Assembly: GCA_964612295.1 (NCBI GenBank)
Contig: CAZTDY010000005.1
Coordinates: forward strand, 70,666 to 134,665
Origin: an uncultured bacterium
GTDB lineage: Bacteria > Eisenbacteria > RBG-16-71-46 > CAIMUX01 > WJJG01
Length of the DNA stretch: 64,000 nt
Direction of reading: 5' to 3'
Shown here one piece after another: positions 5,738 to 19,509 of this stretch. The notes beneath the pieces were generated by a model. It saw only the letters and a program-made list of their open reading frames with translations, ran no database searches and had not been told where the DNA came from. The first letter of the stretch is position 1; each line of letters starts with the position of its first letter. The translations under genes were made by a program, and so were the position numbers.

Positions 5738-7687
5738 ATGAAGGCGAGAGCCGCCACGATCAGCCTGTTCCTTCTGGTCATCCTGGGAGCACCGACGAGC
5801 GCCCGGGCCGACCTCGCGCCCCTCCTCGAACCGGATGAGGTGCGCGCGCTGGTTGCCGAGCACGCCGCCGCCGAATTCCCCGAGGAGGATGCCGTCGTTC
5901 TCTTCATGGGCGAGCGCGTGCGTCTGGAGCCGGACGGGTCGATCGCCCGCCGGACCCAACGGATCGTCCTCTTGCAGACCGAGCGGGCCATCGGCGCGCT
6001 CGGCGACCCCCGGGTGACCTTCAATCGGCGTCATCAGGAACTGCTGATCCACCGCTGCCGAACGTACGTCCCGGGAGGGATCGAGGTGGATGCCACCGAT
6101 CACGCCTTCAACCCCGTGACCCCGGATGCCGTCGCGCGTTGCCCGGATCGGATGTTCCATCAAGACATGGTGATCACCCATGTCGGCATCGAACGCGGTT
6201 GCGTGATCGAACTCGACACCGAGATTCGGGACCTGAAGCCCCATCAGGCCTGGCTCGAGGGGGAGGTCTTTCTCCACGAGCCGTACCCGGTTCTGGATCG
6301 GTTCCTGGAGATCGAGACGCCCGATCACGTCACGTTGCACTATGAGCTTTCGCGCCTGCAGGGCGGCCCGGAGCTGCATCAGGAACAGGGGCGGGCCCAT
6401 CACATCTGGCACTTCGGCCTCCTGCCGGGGGTCCGTGAGTCGGACGACGGTTACGGCGGACGATTGGCCCGCGGCCGGCTGCTCTACAGCACCTGCCCCA
6501 GCTGGGAGTATCTGGCCCGGCGAACGTGGGAACAGATCGACTCGGCCGCCCAACCCGACACGTTGATGGCCACGTTTGTGAACTCGGCCGAGCTCAAAGG
6601 GGCCGGCGAACTGGAACAGGCCCGGGAGATCCTGAGCGTCCTCTCCTCTCAGACGAGGCGGGCCAACGTTCGGCCGTTTGCCGGGCTCCCGAATCCCCGC
6701 AGTGCCGCGGAGACGTTCGTGTTTCGATGTGGCGATCCATGGGATCGGACCAGTCTTGCGATCGCCGCGCTTGGAATGGTCGATCTCGGCGTGGTCACGA
6801 CGCTGCGCGCCAATGCACGCGACGTCAAGAAAGGCGTGCCCATGATGGGCCAGTTCTCCGAGGTCTGGTTGCAGGCCCAGGTTGATGGGGAAACCGTGCT
6901 CTTGGACCCGGTGAGCGGCCACCTCGAGTCGCCGGTCTCCGTCGCGCGGCCCTTCCTGATTCTGGGTGAACGGGGGCTCGAATGGCGCGAGGAATCGGCC
7001 GGGCAGGGCCTGAGCCGACTGTGGGTCGACCTGGCGATGGAATCGGGAGGTGCGGTTGCCGGCCACGTCGACTTGCGGCTCGAAGGCGTCCAGTGGCGCT
7101 GGTCCGACCACGACGGCCCGGGCGACTTGGCCGATGAGGTTGCGGCCCAGATTCTCCCGGGATCCACGCGCGGTGAAGTGGATGTTCGCTGGTTTGGTCC
7201 CGATCGATGCGACCTCCGGTTCGAGGTTGAAGCGCCCTCGCTCGGCGAGCGTGACGGCTCGCGCACCTACGTGCGCCTTCCGGCTCCGCCGGCCGGGATT
7301 GCCGAGGCCATCGGTGGATACGGTCTCGATCGGACAGCGCGAAGCAGCCCGCTTTTCCTACCTGCTCCGATGGAGGAGGTGGTGAAGTGGCGTCTCCGTC
7401 TGCCCGAGGGGATCGAACCGGTCTACCTGCCCGCGGCGGCGGATGAGGACACCCGCGCTGCCCGTTTCGCCATGACGATTGAACGGATAGCGCGTCCCGC
7501 CGACGCGTGGTCGCGCCCGGATGAACGCGAGGCGCGCGGGGAGGAGATTCAAGTCAACTGGACCGCCGGCCTTCCCATGGCCGAGATTCCTCCGGCGCGG
7601 TACCTGGAGCTGAAGAAGGTGATCGGGCGGTATCAAGCTGAGAACCAGCGGCTTCTGATCCTGGGGGGATGGCCCGAGGGGGACTAG
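5738..7687 (+). CDS. DUF3857/transglutaminase-like paralog, probably catalytically degenerate, secreted
   Basis: Start MKARAATISLFLLVILGAPTSARA (signal peptide) at 5738, 24 nt after the upstream stop. It retains the Cys box (FRCGDPWDRTSLAIAAL) but the His position is altered (FSEVWLQAQVDGETVLLDP). It sits in tandem with the 3672 gene. Confidence 0.65.
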   Translation: MKARAATISLFLLVILGAPTSARADLAPLLEPDEVRALVAEHAAAEFPEEDAVVLFMGERVRLEPDGSIARRTQRIVLLQTERAIGALGDPRVTFNRRHQELLIHRCRTYVPGGIEVDATDHAFNPVTPDAVARCPDRMFHQDMVITHVGIERGCVIELDTEIRDLKPHQAWLEGEVFLHEPYPVLDRFLEIETPDHVTLHYELSRLQGGPELHQEQGRAHHIWHFGLLPGVRESDDGYGGRLARGRLLYSTCPSWEYLARRTWEQIDSAAQPDTLMATFVNSAELKGAGELEQAREILSVLSSQTRRANVRPFAGLPNPRSAAETFVFRCGDPWDRTSLAIAALGMVDLGVVTTLRANARDVKKGVPMMGQFSEVWLQAQVDGETVLLDPVSGHLESPVSVARPFLILGERGLEWREESAGQGLSRLWVDLAMESGGAVAGHVDLRLEGVQWRWSDHDGPGDLADEVAAQILPGSTRGEVDVRWFGPDRCDLRFEVEAPSLGERDGSRTYVRLPAPPAGIAEAIGGYGLDRTARSSPLFLPAPMEEVVKWRLRLPEGIEPVYLPAAADEDTRAARFAMTIERIARPADAWSRPDEREARGEEIQVNWTAGLPMAEIPPARYLELKKVIGRYQAENQRLLILGGWPEGD

Positions 7688-7690
7688 CCG

Positions 7691-9676
7691 CTACTCGATA
7701 TACCCCAGGCTCTTCAGCCGTTGCAGCTGACGGTCGTCCAGCTGCAACGATCCGTCTTCCCCGCTTCGGAGAACGGCCTCCTGAATATCCCGCGCCGCGG
7801 CCAGCTCCAGGCGCAGGATCTCCCGGAACTGGGCAAGGCAGGCCGGTTCCTCGGCCGGGAGGAGATTGTGCTCTTCTCCCGGATCGGCGGCCAGGTCATA
7901 GAGGTGCTCGGCGGCGGGATCGATCACCGCTCGGGTTTCTTTGCCGGTCGAGCAGATGTACTTCCAGTGCTCGGTCCGAATGCTGGTGGCGTGTACGGCG
8001 AATCCCATGCTGCGCGGATGGAGGATCTGAGCCGGCGTTGCCGCCGAGTCCGCTTCCTCGCCGCCGAAACCCAGGAACGGGGTAAGGCTCCTTCCCTGGA
8101 GGATGCCGGTCTTCTCCAGGCCGGCCAGATCGAGCACGGTGGGTACGAGGTCGACGAGCTGAACCAACTCCGCGCTCTTCGCCGCACTCTCCTGTTCGGG
8201 CAGCCGGATGAGCAGGGGCACGTGGAGCGACTCATCGTAGAGATCCAGATGGAGAGGCTTGCCGTGCTCGAAGAACTCCTCGCCGTGATCGGAGGTCAAG
8301 ATCACCACCGTGTTGGTTGAGAGATTCAGCGCCTCGAGCGTGTCGAACAGGCCGCCCAGAGCATCGTCCGCATAGGCGATCCCGCCATCGTAGTACGAGA
8401 TCACGTCTTCCAGGTCAGCCGCGGCCATGGGCGTGTCCACGTTGCCGAACCCATAGTCGCGGAGGAGTTCCGAGGCGCAGTGGCCGTTGGGTCCACAACC
8501 CGAGAACCGCGCCCGGGGCGGGTCGCTCAGAAACTCCGTCTGGAAAGGGGCGGGCTCCTCGTAGGGGAGCCGGTGGATATCGGAGTGGATGTCGAAGAGG
8601 TGCAGGAACAGGAAGAAGGTTGTCTCCTGGTGCCAGGTGAGCCACTTGAGAGCCTGGGCGATCTGGGGCTTTGCCGTACCGGTCTTGTGATGGACATAGG
8701 ACCAGCGGACTTTGTCACCGGTGCGCAAGAGCAGACCCCGTAGGAGCGGATGCGGATAGGGAGGATGGACGTAGTCCGCGAAACCCTGGGCGAATCCTCG
8801 GCGTTTTCCGATGTAGGAGGAGGCATCGCCGCCGACAAAGGCCCCGGCGCGATAGCCGTCCCCCTCCAATCGTTCGGCCAGGGTCGTGAATTGGGGGCTC
8901 AGGCGACTGCGATCCGCAACCAGGGCGAGGGCGAGGGGCGAGACACCGGTGAGCATCGAGGCGTGGGACGGCAAGGTCCAATGCGATTGAGCATACGCGT
9001 TCTCAAAGAGCGTTGCCCCTTGTGCCCAGCGGTCGATCACCGGCGAGGTGTCTTGCCCGTAGCCATAACATCCCAGGTGATCGGCACGGAGCGTATCGAG
9101 TGAGATCAGGATGATATTCGGCCGAGCCCCGGCCTCCGCGACAGCCGGGCGTTGCCATCCGAGAAAGGTGCCCAACCCGCACGCCACTGCACTCGCCGCC
9201 AGCCAGAGGGGTAGTCGTCGCAGCGCAGGACCCCACCTCCCGGTGGCCGAGGCGCCAAAGCGCTTCGGCAGGAGCCAGAGGATGACTGCGATGCTCAGGC
9301 TGCCCACCGCAATCAAGATCAAGGCCGCCTTCCACGAGACGCCGGGCAGGCTTCCCGCGGGCTGCGCCTCTTCAACCAGAAGGAAGGCGATAGCTCCGAG
9401 CACGCCCCCGCCGAACAGGGCCCGGAACCAACGCACCGCCGCACTGCGCGTCGCCCATCCGAAGAAGCGGGCCACGGGATGAAGAACGAGTACCACGGCC
9501 AGCAGCGCAACCGCATCGAAGGCCATGCTGAGGAGGATCGCGCCGAGGCGCAGCGAAGCATCCCCCGCCACGGCGGGCAGGAGGCGCAGGCTCAAGTAGC
9601 CGTCGATGAAACCGACCCAGAGCCCGATGCAGAGCCAGCTGAGCAGCCACCTCCGAGTCTGTGGGGAAGGAACCAT
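7691..9676 (-). CDS. Alkaline-phosphatase-superfamily (sulfatase-like) membrane hydrolase/transferase, LtaS/EptA-like
   Basis: Start MVPSPQTRRWLLSWL at 9676. The N-terminal region has about 6 TM helices. The periplasmic domain reads IILISLDTLRADHLGCYGY...SHWTLPSHASMLTG, with Thr and His in place of the formylglycine Cys and the Arg of true sulfatases. This favours a phospho-transferase such as LtaS, MdoB or EptA over a sulfatase. Confidence 0.7.
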   Translation of the reverse strand: MVPSPQTRRWLLSWLCIGLWVGFIDGYLSLRLLPAVAGDASLRLGAILLSMAFDAVALLAVVLVLHPVARFFGWATRSAAVRWFRALFGGGVLGAIAFLLVEEAQPAGSLPGVSWKAALILIAVGSLSIAVILWLLPKRFGASATGRWGPALRRLPLWLAASAVACGLGTFLGWQRPAVAEAGARPNIILISLDTLRADHLGCYGYGQDTSPVIDRWAQGATLFENAYAQSHWTLPSHASMLTGVSPLALALVADRSRLSPQFTTLAERLEGDGYRAGAFVGGDASSYIGKRRGFAQGFADYVHPPYPHPLLRGLLLRTGDKVRWSYVHHKTGTAKPQIAQALKWLTWHQETTFFLFLHLFDIHSDIHRLPYEEPAPFQTEFLSDPPRARFSGCGPNGHCASELLRDYGFGNVDTPMAAADLEDVISYYDGGIAYADDALGGLFDTLEALNLSTNTVVILTSDHGEEFFEHGKPLHLDLYDESLHVPLLIRLPEQESAAKSAELVQLVDLVPTVLDLAGLEKTGILQGRSLTPFLGFGGEEADSAATPAQILHPRSMGFAVHATSIRTEHWKYICSTGKETRAVIDPAAEHLYDLAADPGEEHNLLPAEEPACLAQFREILRLELAAARDIQEAVLRSGEDGSLQLDDRQLQRLKSLGYIE

Positions 9677-9779
9677 GCTCTCAATCCATTCATCCAAGCG
9701 GCATTCCGACGATCTCAAGTGAGCATCGTAGCACGGTAGCGGAGACGGTCCCACATGTCCATGGAGTTGCCCCGGAGGG

Positions 9780-10313
9780 CTAGTCCAGCCTGCGCAGATC
9801 CTGCAGTTTGAACGATTCGGTCTGGCCGCGTTCCTTCTCCGGCCTGAGCCCCGCCACGTCCCACAGGTAACGCAGCGCAACCTCGCCCGCCGAAGGCGAC
9901 GGGTCGGAGGCCGAATCCTCCTGGGCCGCGCTGCCCTGTTTCAGCCAGCGCTCGGCCTTGACCACGTCGTCGAACGAGAGGGCCTGGCAGAGCAACTCCG
10001 TGACCACGTAGTAGCGGGCAGTGCGATCCAGCTCATCCACCGGCAGCAGCGGGGCCAGCAGGTGACTGTCCATCAGGAGGTGAATGTCACTGAGATCGTC
10101 ACAGGTCAGCTCGGCGTCCTTGCCCTGGAAGTCGTTCAGCGCCAGGTGAAGGCGTCCGTCGATCGTGACGGCCAGACTGTCGGCATACATGAGGCAGACT
10201 GCCTCCGGAGCCGAGGCTCCGGCCGATGGCACGTAGGCCATCGACCAGAGCCCAACCATGAAGAGGCAGCCGGCGATCGTTCTGGCTAGAACGGTTGCCC
10301 GATCGTTACCCAT
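9780..10313 (-). CDS. Small secreted hypothetical protein (operon partner of upstream Omp85-like gene)
   Basis: N-terminal hydrophobic signal (…CLFMVGLWSMAYVPSAGASA). It overlaps the stop of the 10286..12022 gene by 28 nt, or starts at M19 (10259). No recognisable family. Confidence 0.45.
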   Translation of the reverse strand: MGNDRATVLARTIAGCLFMVGLWSMAYVPSAGASAPEAVCLMYADSLAVTIDGRLHLALNDFQGKDAELTCDDLSDIHLLMDSHLLAPLLPVDELDRTARYYVVTELLCQALSFDDVVKAERWLKQGSAAQEDSASDPSPSAGEVALRYLWDVAGLRPEKERGQTESFKLQDLRRLD

Positions 10314-12022
10314 ATCTTGGCGTCCGCATCCGAGTCATCCAGGGACTTGGCCAGGTCGACCCTGAGGTCTTCTCCCAATCGTATCCGCAGCCCGACCGTG
10401 GAGGAGAATTTGCCGTCATCGATGATGTCCGCATCTCGATCCGCGGTCTTGCCGATGTCATAGAAGATGGCGGGCTGAAAGTCGGTGAACGGGATCCGCG
10501 GCGCGTATTCGACGTTGGCGAGCACCATCTGATCGCCCATGAGGCTCTTGTGATCGATCCCGCGAATCGTGCGAGCCCCGCCCAGGTAGAACTTCCGGAA
10601 GAGGGGCAGGTCGCCCTCGGATGACCCGTACTTCACCCGCACGTTGATATTGCCGATGCCCTTGATCGGCTGAAAACGCTGCAGCTCGGCCGTGTAGCGC
10701 TCGTAGCAGAGATCACCCTTCAGATCCTCGCCGGCCTTGCGGTACTCCGCGCGGAAGATGACCCCGTACTCCGGGTATTCGTCGTCATCGACCCAGTTCA
10801 ATTCATACCAGGCGATGAGTTCGCCCAGCTTGGCGCTGAAGTCGTCCACGCCTGCGCTGAGCATCGAGTCGGGAAGGGTCGAGAAGTTGGGGCGGAACTG
10901 TTTGTGGGCGTCGAAAAGGTGCCAGAGATTGGGGTAGTGATCCTGCCAGGCCAGTTCCGTGAAGCGGTAGGCCGCACCGAACTCGTTGTGCCGCTCCGGT
11001 TGAATCGTCAGGAACCCGCGGGCGCCCTTCTCGAGGTAGTAATCGCCGTAGTCTTCGGCCGCGAGGAGCGAGAGCACCGTGGTCTCATCCCGGGGGGCGA
11101 GCCAGTAGTCGTCCGAGGTCGACTGCCGGAAGAAGCTCCCGCCGATGGTGATTGGAAACGCATCGAAGAATCGCTGCCGGGCGCCGAGTTCGTAGTCCCA
11201 CCGTCCGGGCATGAACGCGCGAGTGGCGCGGGCGAAGAAGGTCGGCAGGACGGAGTCGGGATCCGCGATCTGCAGGCGGGCGCTGATCGTGCCCCCATCG
11301 ACCCGGTTGTAGTATCCATCGGTCGAAAGGACGTGCTCGTTGTCCCAATCCCAGTCGTACTCCGCTCCATCTCGGCGGCCGCGGGAGATCGCGCGGTCCG
11401 AGAAAACCTCACCTTCCACATGGCTCTCACGGTCCAAGCGGATCCGGCCGGCGATCGCGACGACGTCGCCGTGCACGCGGGCATCCGGGGCGATGTCGAT
11501 GTCGCCGCCCAGGGCCACCACGTTGCGGCGGACCTCTCCGTCGACATAAACGTCACCACCAAAGCAGATCACATCCCCGTAGATGAAGTCCTCGGAGTCG
11601 ACGTCCAGATCGTGACCCAGCGCGAAAAGCGCCCGGCGCGAACGGAGCCGATTGTCGTCGCTCAGGCCGTGCCGGTTCGCGAAGCTGACCTCGATCCGGC
11701 CGCGCCTCCCGCGCACGCCGTCGACCAGCAGTTCGCCCAGGTCGTAGCGCAGCTGTCCCACCAGAATCGCGTCGCGCTCGATCATGACCTCCGAACAGAG
11801 CACCAGGCGGTCCCCACTCAGATAGATGTCATCGGCGTCGAATTCGATGGTGCGGGTCGTGCCGTTCTCCTCGAGGCGAATGAAGCCGTCATCTCCCTCG
11901 GTGCCGATCACGATGAGGGTGGCCTCTTCCATGCCCGCGTCCCTCGCGCCGGCCGGGCCCAATGCGGCCAGGGCCAGAAGCGCGATTCCGAGAAGGCGCG
12001 TGATCTGCTTCCTGCGTGTCAT
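10286..12022 (-). CDS. Outer-membrane Omp85-family beta-barrel protein with N-terminal bactofilin-like/beta-helical repeat domain
   Basis: Start MTRRKQITRLLGIALLALAALGPAGA (signal peptide) at 12022. The N-terminal region carries repeated G-D-V/I motifs (IYGDVICFGGDVYVDGEVRRNVVALGGDIDIAPDARVHGDVVAIAGRIRL) like polymer-forming bactofilin or beta-helix repeats. The C-terminal barrel has the Omp85 signature FYLGGARTIRGI and a terminal aromatic (…IWVTIGQPF). No POTRA domains are evident. Confidence 0.65.
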   Translation of the reverse strand: MTRRKQITRLLGIALLALAALGPAGARDAGMEEATLIVIGTEGDDGFIRLEENGTTRTIEFDADDIYLSGDRLVLCSEVMIERDAILVGQLRYDLGELLVDGVRGRRGRIEVSFANRHGLSDDNRLRSRRALFALGHDLDVDSEDFIYGDVICFGGDVYVDGEVRRNVVALGGDIDIAPDARVHGDVVAIAGRIRLDRESHVEGEVFSDRAISRGRRDGAEYDWDWDNEHVLSTDGYYNRVDGGTISARLQIADPDSVLPTFFARATRAFMPGRWDYELGARQRFFDAFPITIGGSFFRQSTSDDYWLAPRDETTVLSLLAAEDYGDYYLEKGARGFLTIQPERHNEFGAAYRFTELAWQDHYPNLWHLFDAHKQFRPNFSTLPDSMLSAGVDDFSAKLGELIAWYELNWVDDDEYPEYGVIFRAEYRKAGEDLKGDLCYERYTAELQRFQPIKGIGNINVRVKYGSSEGDLPLFRKFYLGGARTIRGIDHKSLMGDQMVLANVEYAPRIPFTDFQPAIFYDIGKTADRDADIIDDGKFSSTVGLRIRLGEDLRVDLAKSLDDSDADAKIWVTIGQPF

Positions 12023-12076
12023 GTCATGTCTCCCTCTCAAAGGGTCCACCAGGTTTCCTGTTCACCCTTGGAGAGT

Positions 12077-12091
12077 GCATGGGCTGTGCCA
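12077..12091 (-). promoter_or_regulatory. Sigma-54 (-24/-12) promoter candidate upstream of the Omp85-like gene
   Basis: The minus strand reads TGGCACagcccATGCA, with GG and GC at canonical spacing (consensus TGGCAC-N5-TTGCW). It lies 55-70 nt upstream of the 12022 start and directly downstream of the NtrC-family regulator gene. An inverted repeat caacggc…gccgttg at 12118..12156 upstream could be the enhancer. Confidence 0.5.
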
Positions 12092-12191
12092 TCTTAGCGC
12101 GCTTGCCGCAACCCACTGCAACAACGGCAGATGGGTGGTGCGCGCCGTGCGCCGCCGTTGTCAATTCCACAACACCGGCTCTCCGGCGTTG

Positions 12192-13562
12192 TCAGGAGGA
12201 CAACAACCCCAGCCGTTTCAGCTTGCGATAGAGGTTTCCGCGATCCACCCCCAGGTCCTGGGCCAGCTGGGTGATGTTCCCGCCGTGCCCTTCGAGCTGG
12301 CTTCGCAGATAGCCGCGTTCGAACTGCTCGACGGCCCGGGTCAGCCGGTTCTTGCCGTCCTCCGCGGCCGTTTCGCCCCCATTTGGACCCAGACAGGGCC
12401 GCACCTGGGTCGCGTCGATCGAATCGCCGCCGCACGTGTAGTAGAGCCGTTCGATCACGTTGCGCAGCTCGCGGACGTTTCCCGGCCAGGGGTGCGCCAT
12501 CAGAAGATCGAGCGCCTCGGGAGTGATCGCAGGGCAGAGGCCTCCCTCCCGGCGGTGCAGCCCATCACGGAAGTGCTCGGCCAGAGAGGGGATATCCTCA
12601 CGCCGCTCGCGCAGCGGCGGCACGGTCAAGGGGACGGTGTTGATTCGGTAGAGAAGATCCTCTCGAAACTGACCCCCGGCCACCATCTCATCCAAGCGGC
12701 GATGGGTCGCACTCAGCACCCGGACGTCGACCGCGGTCGGACGCTCGCCTCCCACCGGGGTGATTCGCCCGCTCTCCAGGGTGCGCAGAAGCTTCGGCTG
12801 CATGGCGAGGGGCATGTCACCGATCTCATCGAGCAGCAGGGTCCCCCGGTGGGCTTGCGCGAACCGGCCGGGCCGCGATTGGGTGGCTCCCGTGAAAGCG
12901 CCCTTCTCGTGACCGAAGAGCTCGCTCTCGACCAGCTCCGCCGGCATCGCCGAGCAGTTGAGCGTCACCAGGGAGCCTTCCGCCCTCGGGCTCCGAAAGT
13001 GGATCTGGGCGGCCACGTTCTCTTTTCCGGTGCCACTCTCGCCCAGAATGAGAATGCGCACATCGCTCGAGGCAAGTCGTTCGATCTGACCGAGCAGATG
13101 CGCCATCTGCGCGGAGCCGCCCACGAGCGGATAGTCCGCGAGCCGTTTCTCCTGCAGACTGCGATTGCTCTCTTTGAGCCGCGCGATCCGGAGTGCGTTG
13201 CCCACCACGGTCAGGAGCCGCGCTGGTTCGAATGGTTTCTCGAGGAAGTCGGTCGCGCCCCGCTTGATCGAATCCGCGGCCTCCTGGAGCGACGCCGCGC
13301 CGGAGACCATGACGATCTCGGGCGGGTGGGTCTGGGCGCTCAACTCGGCGAGCAGATCGGTTCCTTTCCCGTCGGGCAGCTGAATGTCGAGGAGCAGCAC
13401 GAGCGGGCGGTGGCGGGCCAGCGCTTCCCGGGCGGGGGTGAGGGCTTCGAACTCGGCCAGCGAGTATCCCTCCCGGGTGAGAAGCAGGCGGACCTCCTCC
13501 CGGAAGAGCGCATCGTCGTCGACCAAGTAGATGTCAGCCGGTGGCGTCGTCATCCGCGGCAT
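12192..13562 (-). CDS. Sigma-54-dependent response regulator (NtrC family: REC-AAA+-HTH)
   Basis: Receiver domain (DIYLVDDDALFREEV...LLLDIQLPDGKGTDLL), AAA+ with a Walker A (ILGESGTGKE), the GAFTGA-like ESELFGHEKGAFTGA box that defines sigma-54 enhancer-binding proteins, and a C-terminal Fis-type HTH (ITQLAQDLGVDRGNLYRKLKRLGL). Confidence 0.9.
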   Translation of the reverse strand: MPRMTTPPADIYLVDDDALFREEVRLLLTREGYSLAEFEALTPAREALARHRPLVLLLDIQLPDGKGTDLLAELSAQTHPPEIVMVSGAASLQEAADSIKRGATDFLEKPFEPARLLTVVGNALRIARLKESNRSLQEKRLADYPLVGGSAQMAHLLGQIERLASSDVRILILGESGTGKENVAAQIHFRSPRAEGSLVTLNCSAMPAELVESELFGHEKGAFTGATQSRPGRFAQAHRGTLLLDEIGDMPLAMQPKLLRTLESGRITPVGGERPTAVDVRVLSATHRRLDEMVAGGQFREDLLYRINTVPLTVPPLRERREDIPSLAEHFRDGLHRREGGLCPAITPEALDLLMAHPWPGNVRELRNVIERLYYTCGGDSIDATQVRPCLGPNGGETAAEDGKNRLTRAVEQFERGYLRSQLEGHGGNITQLAQDLGVDRGNLYRKLKRLGLLSS

Positions 13563-14457
13563 TCCAATCCAGGCTGAAGGTTGTTCCCGTGTTTCCCGTC
13601 CGGTAGGCGATCCTACCCCCCAGTGATCCGACGATCTTCTTCACAATCGCCAGCCCAAGTCCGGAGCCGGACGGCTTGGTCGTGACGTAGGGGTCGAAGA
13701 GCCGCTGCTCGATCTCGGGCGGGATCCCCGGACCGTCATCGCGCACCTCGATCCGCACGCCTACGCCGGTGGCGGCGGTGGCGATCGCTACCCGGCCATC
13801 GGGTCCGGCGGCCTCCCGGGCATTCTTGAGGAGGTTCACCAGGGCCTCCCTCAGCATATAGGGGTCGATGGAAATGGGGGGCAGGCCCGGCGCCAGCTCC
13901 ATGTCGATCCCGGCCGCGGGAGCGAAACTCTCACTTAGCCGTACGGCCTGCTGCACGATCGAGTTCGGTTCGGCGGGCAGAGGTTGAATGTCGATCGGCC
14001 GGCCGAAGAGGGAGAAATCGCGTGCGATTCGCTCCAGACGATCCAACTCCGAGCGCACCGTCTCCAGCGGCTTGCCCGCCGCGGAGTTCTGCTCGTCCGG
14101 TTGGGCCTGCTCGGGCAGGCGCGCGAGGGCGAGTTTGACCGGCGCCAGAGTGTTCTTGATCCCGTGGGCGATCGTGCGGGCGGTCTGCTGCCAGGCGGCC
14201 GTACGCTCGGCCTCGACGAGCCGCTCGGTGGCCTCGGCCAGGCGCGTCGACATTCGGTTGAAGCCGTCCACCAGGGCACCGACCTCATCTTTCCGCCGGT
14301 AGGGAAGGCGGACGTCCCACTGGCCCGGTCCCACAGACTCGGCCAGACGTTCCAGGTCCGCCAGGGGGCGGGTGAGGCTCCGCGCGGTGAACTGGCTCAC
14401 CATCAGGATGACGAGCAGGTACAGCAGGTTGGCCAGACCCCAGAGGAGCCGCAGCAT
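13534..14457 (-). CDS. Sensor histidine kinase core (TM-HAMP-HisKA-HATPase), lacking its periplasmic sensor region
   Basis: A single TM (LWGLANLLYLLVILMVSQF), an H-box (TIAHGIKNTLAPVKL), and N/G boxes (NLLKNAREA...GSGLGLAIVKKIVGSLGGRIA). It overlaps the regulator gene by 29 nt. The N-terminal sensor part appears displaced into the 14533..15348 ORF. Confidence 0.8.
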   Translation of the reverse strand: MLRLLWGLANLLYLLVILMVSQFTARSLTRPLADLERLAESVGPGQWDVRLPYRRKDEVGALVDGFNRMSTRLAEATERLVEAERTAAWQQTARTIAHGIKNTLAPVKLALARLPEQAQPDEQNSAAGKPLETVRSELDRLERIARDFSLFGRPIDIQPLPAEPNSIVQQAVRLSESFAPAAGIDMELAPGLPPISIDPYMLREALVNLLKNAREAAGPDGRVAIATAATGVGVRIEVRDDGPGIPPEIEQRLFDPYVTTKPSGSGLGLAIVKKIVGSLGGRIAYRTGNTGTTFSLDWNAADDDATG

Positions 14458-14490
14458 CCGGCGTCCTCCGCCCCTCAGGACCAGCTTCAG

Positions 14491-14890
14491 TGTAAGTACT
14501 CGCCGTACCCCGTTACGGTCGATTCAGGCGGATCAACTCATCAAGTCTGAAGGCAGGGTCACCGTTCCGGGCTTCTTGAGTGCGGCATAGGCGGCTTCTC
14601 GTAGGTACGCTTTCGGTTCCACGCGGCAGAGCTTCGCCGATTCCAATAGGCTGTAGAACAACGCCGCCACCTCGGTTCCGCGCTTCGATCGCGAACCATA
14701 GTGATTCTTTCGGCCCAAGACCACTCCGCGCAGCGCTCGTTCAGCCGCGTTGTTGTCCAAAGGGATCCGAGGATCATCCAGGAACGCGATCAACCGGGGC
14801 CACAGCTTCAGTTCTTCGAACCGCTGCAAGTGGAAGGCCAGCTCCTCGAGCAACCGGCCTTGGTCGACCGGCAGCCAACAGCCTGTGACC
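14491..14890 (-). mobile_element. IS66-family insertion sequence remnant (3' end of tnpC plus terminal inverted-repeat-like end)
   Basis: The transposase C-terminal coding fragment is followed at 14491 by TGTAAGTACTCGCC, which resembles the GTAAGCG… termini of IS66-family IRs. No tnpA or tnpB is present, so it is a degraded remnant. The inner boundary is approximate. Confidence 0.5.
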
Positions 14891-15348
14891 AGCAGATGGG
14901 TCTGTGACCAGCGGAGGGCGTAGGCCAGGACGCGCTCCTCGATAGACATCCAGCCTGAGCGGCTTCCGCTCAGCGGCGAGTCGGTGGGCGATGTTTCCCC
15001 CAACGCGAGCAGCCGGCTTCGGATGAAATCGGGCGAGAGATCTCCCTCGCCCGCGCTGGTGGTGTCCTCCCCGGTGACGAGGACCGCGATATCGAGCCCG
15101 TGGGCGAGATACTGCTCGGCGCTTGCGTAGATCGGGGAGGCGGGGGTGAGCTCCAGCGTCTTGCCGGCATAGGCTTCGAGGGTCCCATCGGCCAGGGCGT
15201 GGGCGTCGAGGAGCGCCTCCTCGATGCCGGGCGAGGCGATCCGCTCCAGGCTCCCGATCCCCAACTCCAGGCTCAGGTAGGACAATCCCGCCACGGGCAG
15301 GAAGGCAAAGAGGAAAAACGCGAGAAAGAGCCGGGTTTTGAGTCTCAT
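14533..15348 (-). pseudogene. Chimeric ORF: N-terminal fragment of the sensor kinase (TM1 + periplasmic region) fused to the C-terminal ~115 aa of an IS66-family transposase
   Basis: Residues ~1-150 form a signal/TM helix and a periplasmic-like domain. From ~WSQTHLLVTGCWLPVDQGRLLEEL onward the sequence HLQRFEELKLWPRLIAFLDDPRIPLDNNAAERALRGVVLGRKNHYGSRSKRGTEVAALFYSLLESAKLCRVEPKAYLREA matches the conserved IS66 TnpC C-terminus (…DNNxxERxxRxxxxGRKNxxFxxSxxGxxxxAxxYSLxxTxKLNGVxPxxYL…). Confidence 0.6.
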
Positions 15349-15457
15349 CCTGCCTCGCCTGGGCGCCCTTTTCGAGGGTCACCGACCTACACGCGCAAAC
15401 CCCGCCGCCTTGCAGGGAGAGGCCTATACTGAGGACTGATTTCCGGGAGGAAAGATG

Positions 15458-15531
15458 TGGCGGCGCAGGGACTCGAACCCCGGACACGCGGATTATGATT
15501 CCGCTGCTCTAACCAACTGAGCTACGCCGCC
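15458..15531 (-). tRNA. tRNA-Met (anticodon CAU; elongator type or tRNA-Ile2 lysidine type)
   Basis: The reverse complement GGCGGCGUAGCUCAGUUGGUUAGAGCAGCGGAAUCAUAAUCCGCGUGUCCGGGGUUCGAGUCCCUGCGCCGCCA folds as a cloverleaf: 7-bp acceptor stem, D-arm AGCUCAGUUGGUUAGAGC, anticodon stem GCGGA/UCCGC with loop AUCAUAA, and T-arm GGUUCGAGUCC. G1-C72 is paired, so it is not an initiator. CCA is not encoded. Confidence 0.85.
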
Positions 15532-18205: not shown

Positions 18206-19021
18206 TCAATTCGATCGCGTCTCCGGCTGCGATTCAGGCACCTCGAAGGTGAAGTTCGGATCGAGAACCTTGATCTGTTCGACCACTGCTTCGAGCTTCG
18301 CCTTCACCGCCGGGTCACTCGTTCTCTTCCACTCCGCGTAGAGATCCAGGAACTCGTCCTGTTTGCCGCGGAGATCTTCACAGCGCTTCGATTCACTGAC
18401 CGTCCGCTCGAGGTGATAAACCTCGCCGTGAGACAGCTTGTCCAAGAGGTTCAGATACTCCCCCCGCATGTGCGACAGAATGCGCAGGTACTTCTCGAAT
18501 CCAACACTGAGCTTCTCGAGCACGTCGGTGATCGCGGCGTGCGGATCGTGGATCTTCTGGCTGTACGTGTAGGCGAAGCGGTAGTAGGTCTTGCCCCGCC
18601 CGATGTACGCCTCTTCCGAGGGCTGGAACACCTGCCTCTCGGGCACGATCAGCGTGCTGGGATTCACCGGATCGGTCGCCACGGGATTGTCGAAGATTCC
18701 CAGGGAGACGAGCAGGAAGTCCGCATTGGTCTTGTACAGAGTATATTTCAGGCGCGCGTCCCGCGACTCGGCCAGCCGGCCGAAGACCTCGCTGTCATAC
18801 TTCGACAGGTATTTGTTTGCGCGCTGAATGTACTCCGGATTGATGAAGGAGTTCAGAAGATGGGCGATATAGACGTTCACATCTTCGTCGTAGTAGTCCT
18901 TGTTTGAAACCAGTCCGGTCTCGATGCGCGAATACAGCAGACACTTCAACATGAAGTAGTAGGTCGGCTTCAGATCCCGCGTCTTGCCCGTCAGGTCTAT
19001 GTAGCTGCTCCGGGTCGACAT
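18206..19021 (-). CDS. Hypothetical protein, locally low-GC orphan gene
   Basis: Start MSTRSSYIDLTG at 19021. No recognisable family. The Tyr/Lys/Asn-rich composition and GC (~55%) are clearly below the window average. Confidence 0.5.
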   Translation of the reverse strand: MSTRSSYIDLTGKTRDLKPTYYFMLKCLLYSRIETGLVSNKDYYDEDVNVYIAHLLNSFINPEYIQRANKYLSKYDSEVFGRLAESRDARLKYTLYKTNADFLLVSLGIFDNPVATDPVNPSTLIVPERQVFQPSEEAYIGRGKTYYRFAYTYSQKIHDPHAAITDVLEKLSVGFEKYLRILSHMRGEYLNLLDKLSHGEVYHLERTVSESKRCEDLRGKQDEFLDLYAEWKRTSDPAVKAKLEAVVEQIKVLDPNFTFEVPESQPETRSN

Positions 19022-19509
19022 CGCTCCAGAAACTCCCTTTCTAACCGCTCGTCGTCCGTTCAAATGGTGCGGTTTCAGAATCCCGTTGACACTCAGCGGC
19101 CCTCAACTCATGCTCGTGATGCCGGGTTCTGGTGGGGAGATTCAGCAACGGCTGTGCCAGCAACGGCTGGCCGGCGGCGCCGGGTCGGGAGGGGTTCACG
19201 CAGCGACGCATCAGGCAACCTGCAGGCGCTCACAGGTTCGATCCCGGCTGGCGAACCGATCCATCCTGCTAAGATTCTGTCTTTGGCGGGGATGTGGCGA
19301 GTACCCTCGCGTCGTTTGGTGCATCGGCCCACCCGTTCTGCGCGCTCACTCCTCTCCCAAAACCGCCCTGCCAATTGGCCCGATTCGCGTGTGGTTTCAG
19401 GCAAACCGCCCATCCGGATCTGAGCGACCCAAGCCCGGGTCCTTGCAGACTGCATCCGTGGCCCCCCGGCCGCGTGCATTCTGCGGTAGGAGAGAGGGAG
19501 AGATCGGTC

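Follow-up and report, generated by a model that had tools for sequence, protein, structure and literature searches.

The sigma-54 consensus is TGGCACG-N4-TTGCW, and three described two-component systems serve here as references for its use. In NtrB/NtrC-glnAp2 of enteric bacteria, two 17-bp palindromic activator sites (6+5+6) lie about 32 bp apart and approximately 100–140 bp upstream. In CbrA/CbrB-crcZ of Pseudomonas, the sigma-54 target directly follows the kinase and regulator genes, and the activator sites are located in the short spacer. In GlrK/GlrR (QseE/F)-glmY of enterobacteria, the GlrR sites have the form TGTC-N10-GACA, and the system has an accessory lipoprotein, QseG. The locus compared with these systems comes from an uncultured bacterium of the Eisenbacteria (assembly GCA_964612295.1, contig CAZTDY010000005.1); the whole stretch analyzed, 64,000 nucleotides long, is referred to as the window. 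At its center of interest is a sigma-54-type (−24/−12) promoter situated between the gene of a sigma-54-dependent response regulator and the gene of an Omp85-superfamily outer-membrane protein (OMP).

A fourth relevant system involves DUF4390, which is a domain of the Bordetella protein PlrP (PMC13001219). Based on genetics in Bordetella bronchiseptica, PlrP was proposed to be a periplasmic third component, one that keeps the phosphatase activity of PlrS in check via the PDC domain of this kinase (PMC13001219). Moreover, plrP can be deleted once the periplasmic PDC domain of PlrS, an NtrY-family kinase, has been removed (PMC13001219).

The locus described here very probably represents a classical enhancer/sigma-54 control region, composed of a promoter, tandem palindromes, an adjacent NtrC-family regulator, and an OMP operon, the sensing half of which is broken in this genome.

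Promoter and tandem palindromes

The features that make up this control region are as follows.

12091..12076, minus strand: sigma-54 (−24/−12) promoter TGGCACAGCCCATGCA, predicted from its match to the consensus
12157..12173: proximal palindrome (site 2), reading GTTGTGGAATTGACAAC on the minus strand, center at 12165, 76 bp upstream of the GG of the −24 element and at about −100 from the predicted transcription start site (TSS)
12188..12204: distal palindrome (site 1), reading GTTGTCCTCCTGACAAC on the minus strand, center at about −131, overlapping the TGA of the regulator gene (12194..12192)
12192..13562, minus strand: sigma-54-dependent response regulator of 456 aa with REC, AAA+, and HTH_8 domains (Pfam), overlapping the kinase gene by 29 nt
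10286..12022, minus strand: Omp85-superfamily OMP of 578 aa, with a PF01103 match of 50 bits (cut-off 24) in the C-terminal half

The −24/−12 element TGGCACagcccATGCA (12091..12076, minus strand) has the form GG-N10-GC with the correct spacing of 12 nt from GG (12090/12089) to GC (12078/12077). It faces the OMP gene, whose ATG (12022) follows 54 nt downstream, and agrees with TGGCAC-N5-TTGCA at 15 of its 16 positions. The TSS is predicted at about 12065, which would give a 5′ untranslated region (UTR) of about 43 nt. When one mismatch at most is allowed, the window contains only two sites (12091..12076 and 19159..19144). With two mismatches allowed there are seven sites, compared with 11.9 in shuffled sequences, such that only near-perfect matches are informative. 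In a weight-matrix scan of both strands, the promoter ranked second among approximately 128,000 positions, with 16.1–16.2 bits. The initial annotation had described a −24/−12 element between the regulator stop (12192) and the OMP start (12022), and both its presence and its location are borne out; its true extent is one base longer than the interval 12077..12091 given there.

Comparison among relatives provides the main evidence that this element is conserved. The GG-N10-GC site is the top match of the same intergenic region in 12 related loci (27–86% protein identity, 47–71% GC), and in every regulator-bearing locus the best sigma-54-type site of the regulator–OMP spacer carries GG-N10-G(C). 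The sites found in these spacers, labeled by locus, are listed below.

L005: CGGCACGGCCCATGCA
L006: CGGCATGCTCTCTGCT
L015: CGGAACGGAATCTGCT
L021: CGGCACGATTCCTGCA
L012: CGGCATGCATCCTGCA
L010: TGGCATGCTTTGTGCA
L014: TGGCATGGTTTATGCA
L009: AGGCATGAATCTTGAT
L020: CGGCATGAATCTTGAT
L027: TGGTATAAAGTTTGCT
L022: TGGCACGATTTTCTCT, with a weak −12 element

Sites that score equally high occur in the same loci at a background rate of 3e-5 to 4e-4 per position, and the chance of finding one in each spacer, combined over seven lineages, is small (Fisher combined p = 2e-7). In a MAFFT alignment of 11 spacers (47–71% GC), the only invariant non-coding columns are the GG and A of GGCA and the TGT/ACA of the palindromes, while the TG of the −12 element hardly varies. 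The promoter score in this genome (16.2) is the best of the family.

The two palindromes, both 17 bp long and 31 bp apart, are perfect copies of GTTGTC-N5-GACAAC in this genome. Twelve of 13 loci have exactly two TGT-N7-ACA sites in this region, with a spacing of 31–34 bp, and the family-wide form appears to be GYTGT(C)-N5-(G)ACAWC, which suggests GYTGTC-N5-GACAWC as a putative activator recognition site. The motif is not generally frequent, as TGT-N7-ACA was observed three times in the window, compared with 6.8 expected, and two of these occurrences are the palindromes. The distance from the center of the proximal site to the GG of the −24 element is 74–76 or 84–86 bp, or 265 bp in L014. The helical phase relative to −24 is thus kept (Rayleigh R = 0.88, p = 2e-5, 10.5-bp period, ten lineages), although the loci share ancestry and this statistic overstates their independence. 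Their dyad symmetry, their position within the range of approximately 80–150 bp upstream, and their constant helical face are those expected of the upstream activating sequence of an NtrC-type activator. These patterns suggest that the two palindromes are a conserved enhancer and provide docking sites for the regulator.

Two natural absences are consistent with this assignment. The OMP orthologs of L008 (region 7290–8001) and L019 (47–48% identity) occur without the kinase, the regulator, and the DUF4390 gene. Their best −24/−12 scores are only 5.3 and 8.5 bits, respectively, and they have no palindromes. L008 keeps the surrounding synteny, and in both loci the OMP gene directly follows a tRNA-Met gene. 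These joint losses indicate that promoter, enhancer, regulator, and DUF4390 gene travel together.

The four-gene module and its lesions

The promoter belongs to a conserved four-gene module that encodes a HAMP membrane kinase (423–545 aa), a sigma-54 regulator (about 455 aa), the OMP (575–617 aa), and a DUF4390-like protein (216–240 aa). This module is conserved over about 12 independent loci (contigs encoding OMP homologs). The remaining parts in this genome, together with a gene that follows them, are listed below.

14813..15348, minus strand: N-terminal kinase fragment with TM1 and a periplasmic domain of about 155 aa, running in frame into the IS remnant to a stop at 14533
14492..14802, minus strand: IS66-family remnant of 311 bp with a DDE_Tnp_IS66 match, absent from L005 by alignment
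13534..14457, minus strand: C-terminal kinase fragment of 307 aa with TM2, HAMP, HisKA, and HATPase (Pfam and TM prediction)
9780..10313, minus strand: DUF4390-like gene of 177 aa with a 54-aa in-frame internal deletion (relatives 216–240 aa), overlapping the OMP gene by 28 nt
7691..9676, minus strand: membrane-anchored sulfatase-family gene of 661 aa, 103 bp downstream of the DUF4390-like gene, with predicted TM segments

The regulator is competent by its domain content. Its matches to PF00072 (Response_reg), PF00158 (Sigma54_activat, 219.7 bits), PF25601 (AAA_lid_14), and PF02954 (HTH_8) are all above the Pfam cut-offs, and GAFTGA is intact at residues 221–226. With a receiver domain, an AAA+ domain carrying GAFTGA, and a Fis-type helix-turn-helix, the protein can be assigned to the NtrC-family response-regulator class of bacterial enhancer-binding proteins. 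It is not an equivalog of NtrC, NtrX, AtoC, ZraR, GlrR, or the PEP-CTERM regulator, as all scores are below the NCBIfam cut-offs (NtrX, the best, 388.4 vs. 600; NtrC, 379.6 vs. 558.6; GlrR, 316 vs. 763).

The OMP combines a beta-helix with an Omp85 barrel. Its AlphaFold (AF2) model (11 homologs, pLDDT 78.6) has a signal peptide, an all-beta domain (36–117), a beta-helix (132–214), and a 16-strand barrel (232–574). The beta-helix consists of short strands and has a bactofilin match of E = 9e-5, below the cut-off. The best Foldseek matches in PDB are BamA barrels (E about 1e-15), the C-terminal residue is Phe, and a conserved RTIRG motif presumably corresponds to the Omp85 loop-6 RG(F/Y) motif. 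Profile scans found no POTRA domain, and the N-terminal region of the AF2 model is all-beta without helices. Assignment to the BamA, TamA, or TpsB subfamilies was rejected because of this lack of POTRA, and the NCBIfam scores for BamA and TamA fall far short of their cut-offs. When 1.84 billion representative proteins were searched with a profile, about 60–70 full-length clusters had the same architecture, with 310 matches at E ≤ 1e-30. The named carriers are metagenome-assembled genomes of Zixibacteria, Ignavibacteria, and Calditrichota, and the species-representative relatives have at most 52% identity. A literature search for Omp85 paired with bactofilin found no paper in the library covered.

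The DUF4390-like gene is the part that the initial annotation overlooked. That annotation had recognized a compact kinase–regulator–promoter–OMP arrangement with an NtrC-type regulator and a beta-helix-Omp85 target, all of which agree with the domain matches, the AF2 model, and the conservation of the module, whereas the fourth gene and its 54-aa deletion went unmentioned. The 28-nt overlap between the OMP and DUF4390-like genes also occurs in L005, L006, L010, and L015, and this usual overlap suggests translational coupling. The PF14334 (DUF4390) scores of the relatives, against a cut-off of 27 bits, are 33.3 (L009), 24.6 (L005), 23.4 (L010), and 22.8 (L012). In this genome, the deletion is flanked by two TIDG-coding repeats, with an overlap of 11 bp in the BLAST alignment, and the removed segment corresponds to the PF14334 match of L005. 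The 177-aa product has no PF14334 match because the matching segment is deleted.

The kinase is intact in L005 (498 aa) and is split just before TM2 in this genome. The C-terminal open reading frame opens with TM2 MLRLLWGLANLLYLLVILMV and has its own ATG at 14457, with GGAGGA 7 nt upstream. The interruption is of the IS66 family, as the initial annotation's mention of an IS implied, yet the claim of a whole element does not hold. The insertion is a 311-bp 3′-terminal remnant with about 73–89 C-terminal transposase residues and one end, which rules out a complete IS as the disruptor. The remnant encodes the last 89 transposase codons (WPRLIAFLDDPRIPLDNNAAERALRG...), matches DDE_Tnp_IS66 profile positions 311–383 of 387, and ends in ...GAGTACTTAC, which we take to be an IS66-type terminal repeat. 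A 10-bp direct repeat ACTGAAGCTG brackets it at 14803–14812 and 14482–14491. A full IS66 element has a DDE_Tnp_IS66 transposase, accessory tnpA/tnpB, two terminal repeats, and an 8-bp target duplication, and the remnant falls short of this set.

Contig L002, which is from the same species in another sample, continues past the remnant with internal IS66 transposase sequence (...AIAYMLKLWPRL...) rather than with kinase sequence. In a comparison of L002 positions 1–95 with window positions 14803–14897, CTGAAGTTG of L002 resembles CTGAAGCTG of the kinase. In addition, contigs L003 and L004 break within the remnant. The continuation of L002 and these breaks indicate that IS66 is multi-copy in this genome. 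The simplest history would be that a full IS66 element inserted and was later cut down by deletion at a microhomology. Alternatively, a full IS66 copy may still be present at the kinase site in some cells.

The sulfatase-family gene lies within a 2.1-kb segment (7675–9778) that is absent from L005, indicating a lineage-specific addition at the end of the operon. By reading of the sequence, its product has TLPSH where sulfatases have CxPxR. In L012 and L013, the module is followed by an FGE-sulfatase gene instead (L012, 8602–9678). The presence of sulfatase-type genes after the module may be a coincidence or a functional link. At the other end, a tRNA-Met (CAT) gene (15457–15531, minus strand) lies directly upstream of the kinase gene; it was the only match when the window was scanned against Rfam at gathering thresholds.

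Taken together, these parts suggest the following working model. The membrane kinase would phosphorylate the receiver domain of the regulator, and regulator dimers would bind the two palindromes via HTH_8 and assemble an AAA+ ring. By looping, the ring would reach the closed complex of the sigma-54 holoenzyme and open the promoter with ATP use via the GAFTGA loop. The resulting transcript would span the coupled OMP and DUF4390 genes, and here probably the sulfatase-family gene added behind them as well. If PlrP/PlrS is a guide, the DUF4390 product in turn probably influences the kinase through its periplasmic domain, which would close a feedback loop.

Of these components, the promoter, enhancer palindromes, regulator gene, and OMP gene have stayed intact here. 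The IS66 remnant cuts off the periplasmic domain of the kinase from the TM2-HAMP-DHp-CA part, and the DUF4390 core is missing; the periplasmic signal is therefore presumably no longer sensed. The circuit would then be blind to this signal, with its output set by the sensor-less kinase fragment or another phosphodonor. The kinase is split, but its C-terminal piece keeps an ATG and GGAGGA; the output may plausibly be locked, whether in the on or in the off state. The IS66 remnant, the DUF4390 deletion, and the sulfatase addition are common to all four assemblies of the species (at least 99.96% identity). The dN/dS values relative to L005, which are averages over the whole branch to L005, are 0.12–0.25 for every module piece (0.12–0.16 for the two kinase pieces, with 0.12 for the C-terminal fragment). 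The lesions are thus recent or tolerated.

A different explanation of the same lesions is that the whole module is decaying into pseudogenes here and that its promoter no longer matters. In its favor, two of the four module genes are damaged, one by the IS66 remnant and the other by the 54-aa deletion, and every assembly of the species shares this damage. We consider such decay unlikely, as the promoter has the best score of the family, both palindromes are without a mismatch, neither the regulator nor the OMP is truncated, and the dN/dS values are low for all pieces, albeit averaged over the branch to L005.

Alternative readings of the control region

Besides the shared ancestry of the loci, several points weigh against an enhancer/sigma-54 control region. 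The weight matrix was self-written from the published consensus rather than derived from a curated site set. The −12 element is weak in L009 and L020 (TTGA) and in L022 (CTCT). The left half of site 1 lies within the conserved Leu-Leu codons of the regulator, such that its conservation is partly coding. No RpoN box was found in the window and the compared loci, which says little about the genome. No terminator was predicted between the regulator gene and the promoter, and read-through may add to OMP expression. Finally, the DUF4390 assignment depends on Pfam scores from below to just above the threshold (22.8–33.3 bits), and the feedback is proposed by analogy only.

With regard to the palindromes, they might not be regulator sites and instead act as RNA hairpins that end the regulator transcript or as operators of an unrelated repressor. 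In favor of this, they lie where the regulator gene ends, and each could fold into a hairpin of 5–6 bp. Yet no T-run is present, and it is the TGT/ACA sequence itself that is invariant and not the pairing. Palindrome positions 2 and 16 show no covariation (the combinations seen are C/A, A/A, and C/T), while TGT/ACA never vary, which argues for recognition by a protein rather than an RNA hairpin. Furthermore, helical phasing to −24 would be meaningless for an RNA element, and the palindromes vanish along with the regulator. Accordingly, this possibility appears quite improbable.

It is also very improbable that the −24/−12 match is a relic or non-functional and that the OMP operon is read from the kinase–regulator operon or from an unrecognized sigma-70-type promoter. 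In its favor, the intergenic gap is only 169 bp and contains no terminator after the regulator gene; a sigma-70-like site was not found, but that scan was crude. In opposition to this, GG/GC are kept at a fixed spacing in genomes of 47–71% GC while the spacer around them is unalignable, and the −24/−12 site is gone where the regulator is gone (L008 and L019).

One further feature of the spacer is an inverted repeat.

12121..12161 (arms 12121–12128 and 12154–12161): inverted repeat ACAACGGC-N25-GCCGTTGT, the distal arm being part of site 2 and the proximal arm lineage-specific

The initial annotation had proposed this repeat (CAACGGC-N25-GCCGTTG, placed about 4 nt off at 12118..12156), 30–80 bp upstream of the promoter, as the site bound by the regulator. 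The repeat exists, one arm has the conserved ACAAC motif, and the proximal one might serve this lineage as an additional half-site, but its role as the enhancer is rejected and has very little probability: an 8-nt perfect repeat arises by chance in 10.9% of surrogates (first-order Markov versions of the 169-bp regulator–OMP spacer), the proximal arm is gone from L005 (OMP 86% identical) and all other loci, and a 25-nt half-site gap is unsuited to a dimeric HTH_8 site, which the conserved 17-bp palindromes suit.

Three side observations concern sigma-54-type sites. First, a 12-nt inverted repeat (11/12 complementary) joins 12064–12075 CTCTCCAAGGGT, just 3′ of the −12 element, with 12034–12045 ACCCTTTGAGAG in the Shine-Dalgarno region, and comparable pairings of the −12 flank with the Shine-Dalgarno region occur in L005, L009, L020, and L021. 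Because its 5′ arm is mostly upstream of the predicted TSS, a plain 5′UTR RNA structure was rejected, and the hairpin would exist only in read-through transcripts, where it could mask the ribosome-binding site.

Second, a stronger sigma-54-type site TGGCACAGCCGTTGCT (19144–19159, minus strand) lies 123 nt upstream of a gene encoding a 271-aa protein (18206–19021, minus strand). This 16-mer is 100% identical in L001, L005, L006, and L008 despite diverged flanks, and about 25 nt downstream of it are also conserved. A different activator is expected there, since no TGT-N7-ACA occurs near the site. The conserved 271-aa protein has no match in Pfam, NCBIfam, or PDB. The identity of this second −24/−12 site in four diverged genomes speaks indirectly for sigma-54 use in the lineage, as does the GAFTGA motif of the regulator.

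Third, distant Zixibacteria OMP homologs (about 27% identity) have strong −24/−12 sites upstream (L025, 5859, TGGCATCTTCTTTGCT; L026, 5803, TGGCACGCAGATTGCA; L030, 5886, TGGCATCGAATTTGCC), and no sigma-54 regulator was found within 6 kb of the OMP homolog in these three loci.

Comparison with known systems

The locus resembles NtrB/NtrC-glnAp2 in its sigma-54 promoter, site geometry (about −100 and −131 here), and REC-AAA+-HTH_8 regulator. The half-site differs (TGCACC there, GTTGTC here), and here the kinase sits in the membrane and has a periplasmic domain, and the target is an outer-membrane/periplasmic operon. The kinase–regulator–target layout is shared with CbrA/CbrB-crcZ, in which the target is a small RNA. 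The target of GlrK/GlrR-glmY is likewise a small RNA, and the gap between half-sites is 10 there and 5 here; this system was compared with the present one through NCBIfam scores only. Comparative analysis defines GYTGTC-N5-GACAWC as a new candidate activator site.

For the target protein, BamA, TamA, TpsB, and the ‘noNterm’ Omp85 proteins share the 16-strand Omp85 barrel and the aromatic last residue, whereas the OMP here has an all-beta domain and a bactofilin-like beta-helix and no POTRA (PMC4104836, PMC11358297). In poorly known phyla, the conserved, uncharacterized module joins a POTRA-less beta-helix/Omp85 protein and DUF4390 to a sigma-54 two-component system, and its defined promoter/regulator pair offers a handle for probing the function of this Omp85 subfamily.

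Similar to the NtrYX-family system PlrS/PlrR/PlrP (PMC13001219), a DUF4390 periplasmic protein is encoded beside a HAMP membrane kinase and a regulator. In that system, the DUF4390 gene precedes the kinase gene, the kinase has PAS, and the beta-proteobacterial regulator lacks AAA+. Here, the DUF4390 gene comes after the Omp85-like gene, downstream of the sigma-54 promoter that the regulator itself would target; the kinase is without PAS, the AAA+ domain of the regulator is complete, and the module is carried by uncultured, Zixibacteria-like lineages. The severed periplasmic domain and gutted DUF4390 gene in this genome parallel a ΔPDC/ΔplrP strain, as an analogy and not a test. By this analogy, the natural case backs the proposal that DUF4390 proteins act through the periplasmic domain of the kinase.

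More tentatively, the locus might represent an undescribed trans-envelope signaling module of Zixibacteria-like bacteria, in which a sigma-54 activator drives an outer-membrane Omp85 barrel with a periplasmic bactofilin-like beta-helix, together with a PlrP-type DUF4390 protein whose feedback targets the periplasmic domain of the kinase, a possibility that we regard as doubtful at present. If true, the ‘third component’ idea would extend beyond Proteobacteria, wired as an output of its own system, and the window would hold a natural counterpart of the Bordetella ΔPDC/ΔplrP double mutant. The promoter-proximal anti-Shine-Dalgarno repeat might then limit translation to sigma-54-initiated transcripts. 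Compared with the known systems, the control mechanism is ordinary NtrC-type, while the recognition site and the regulated module, which is uncharacterized, are new variants.

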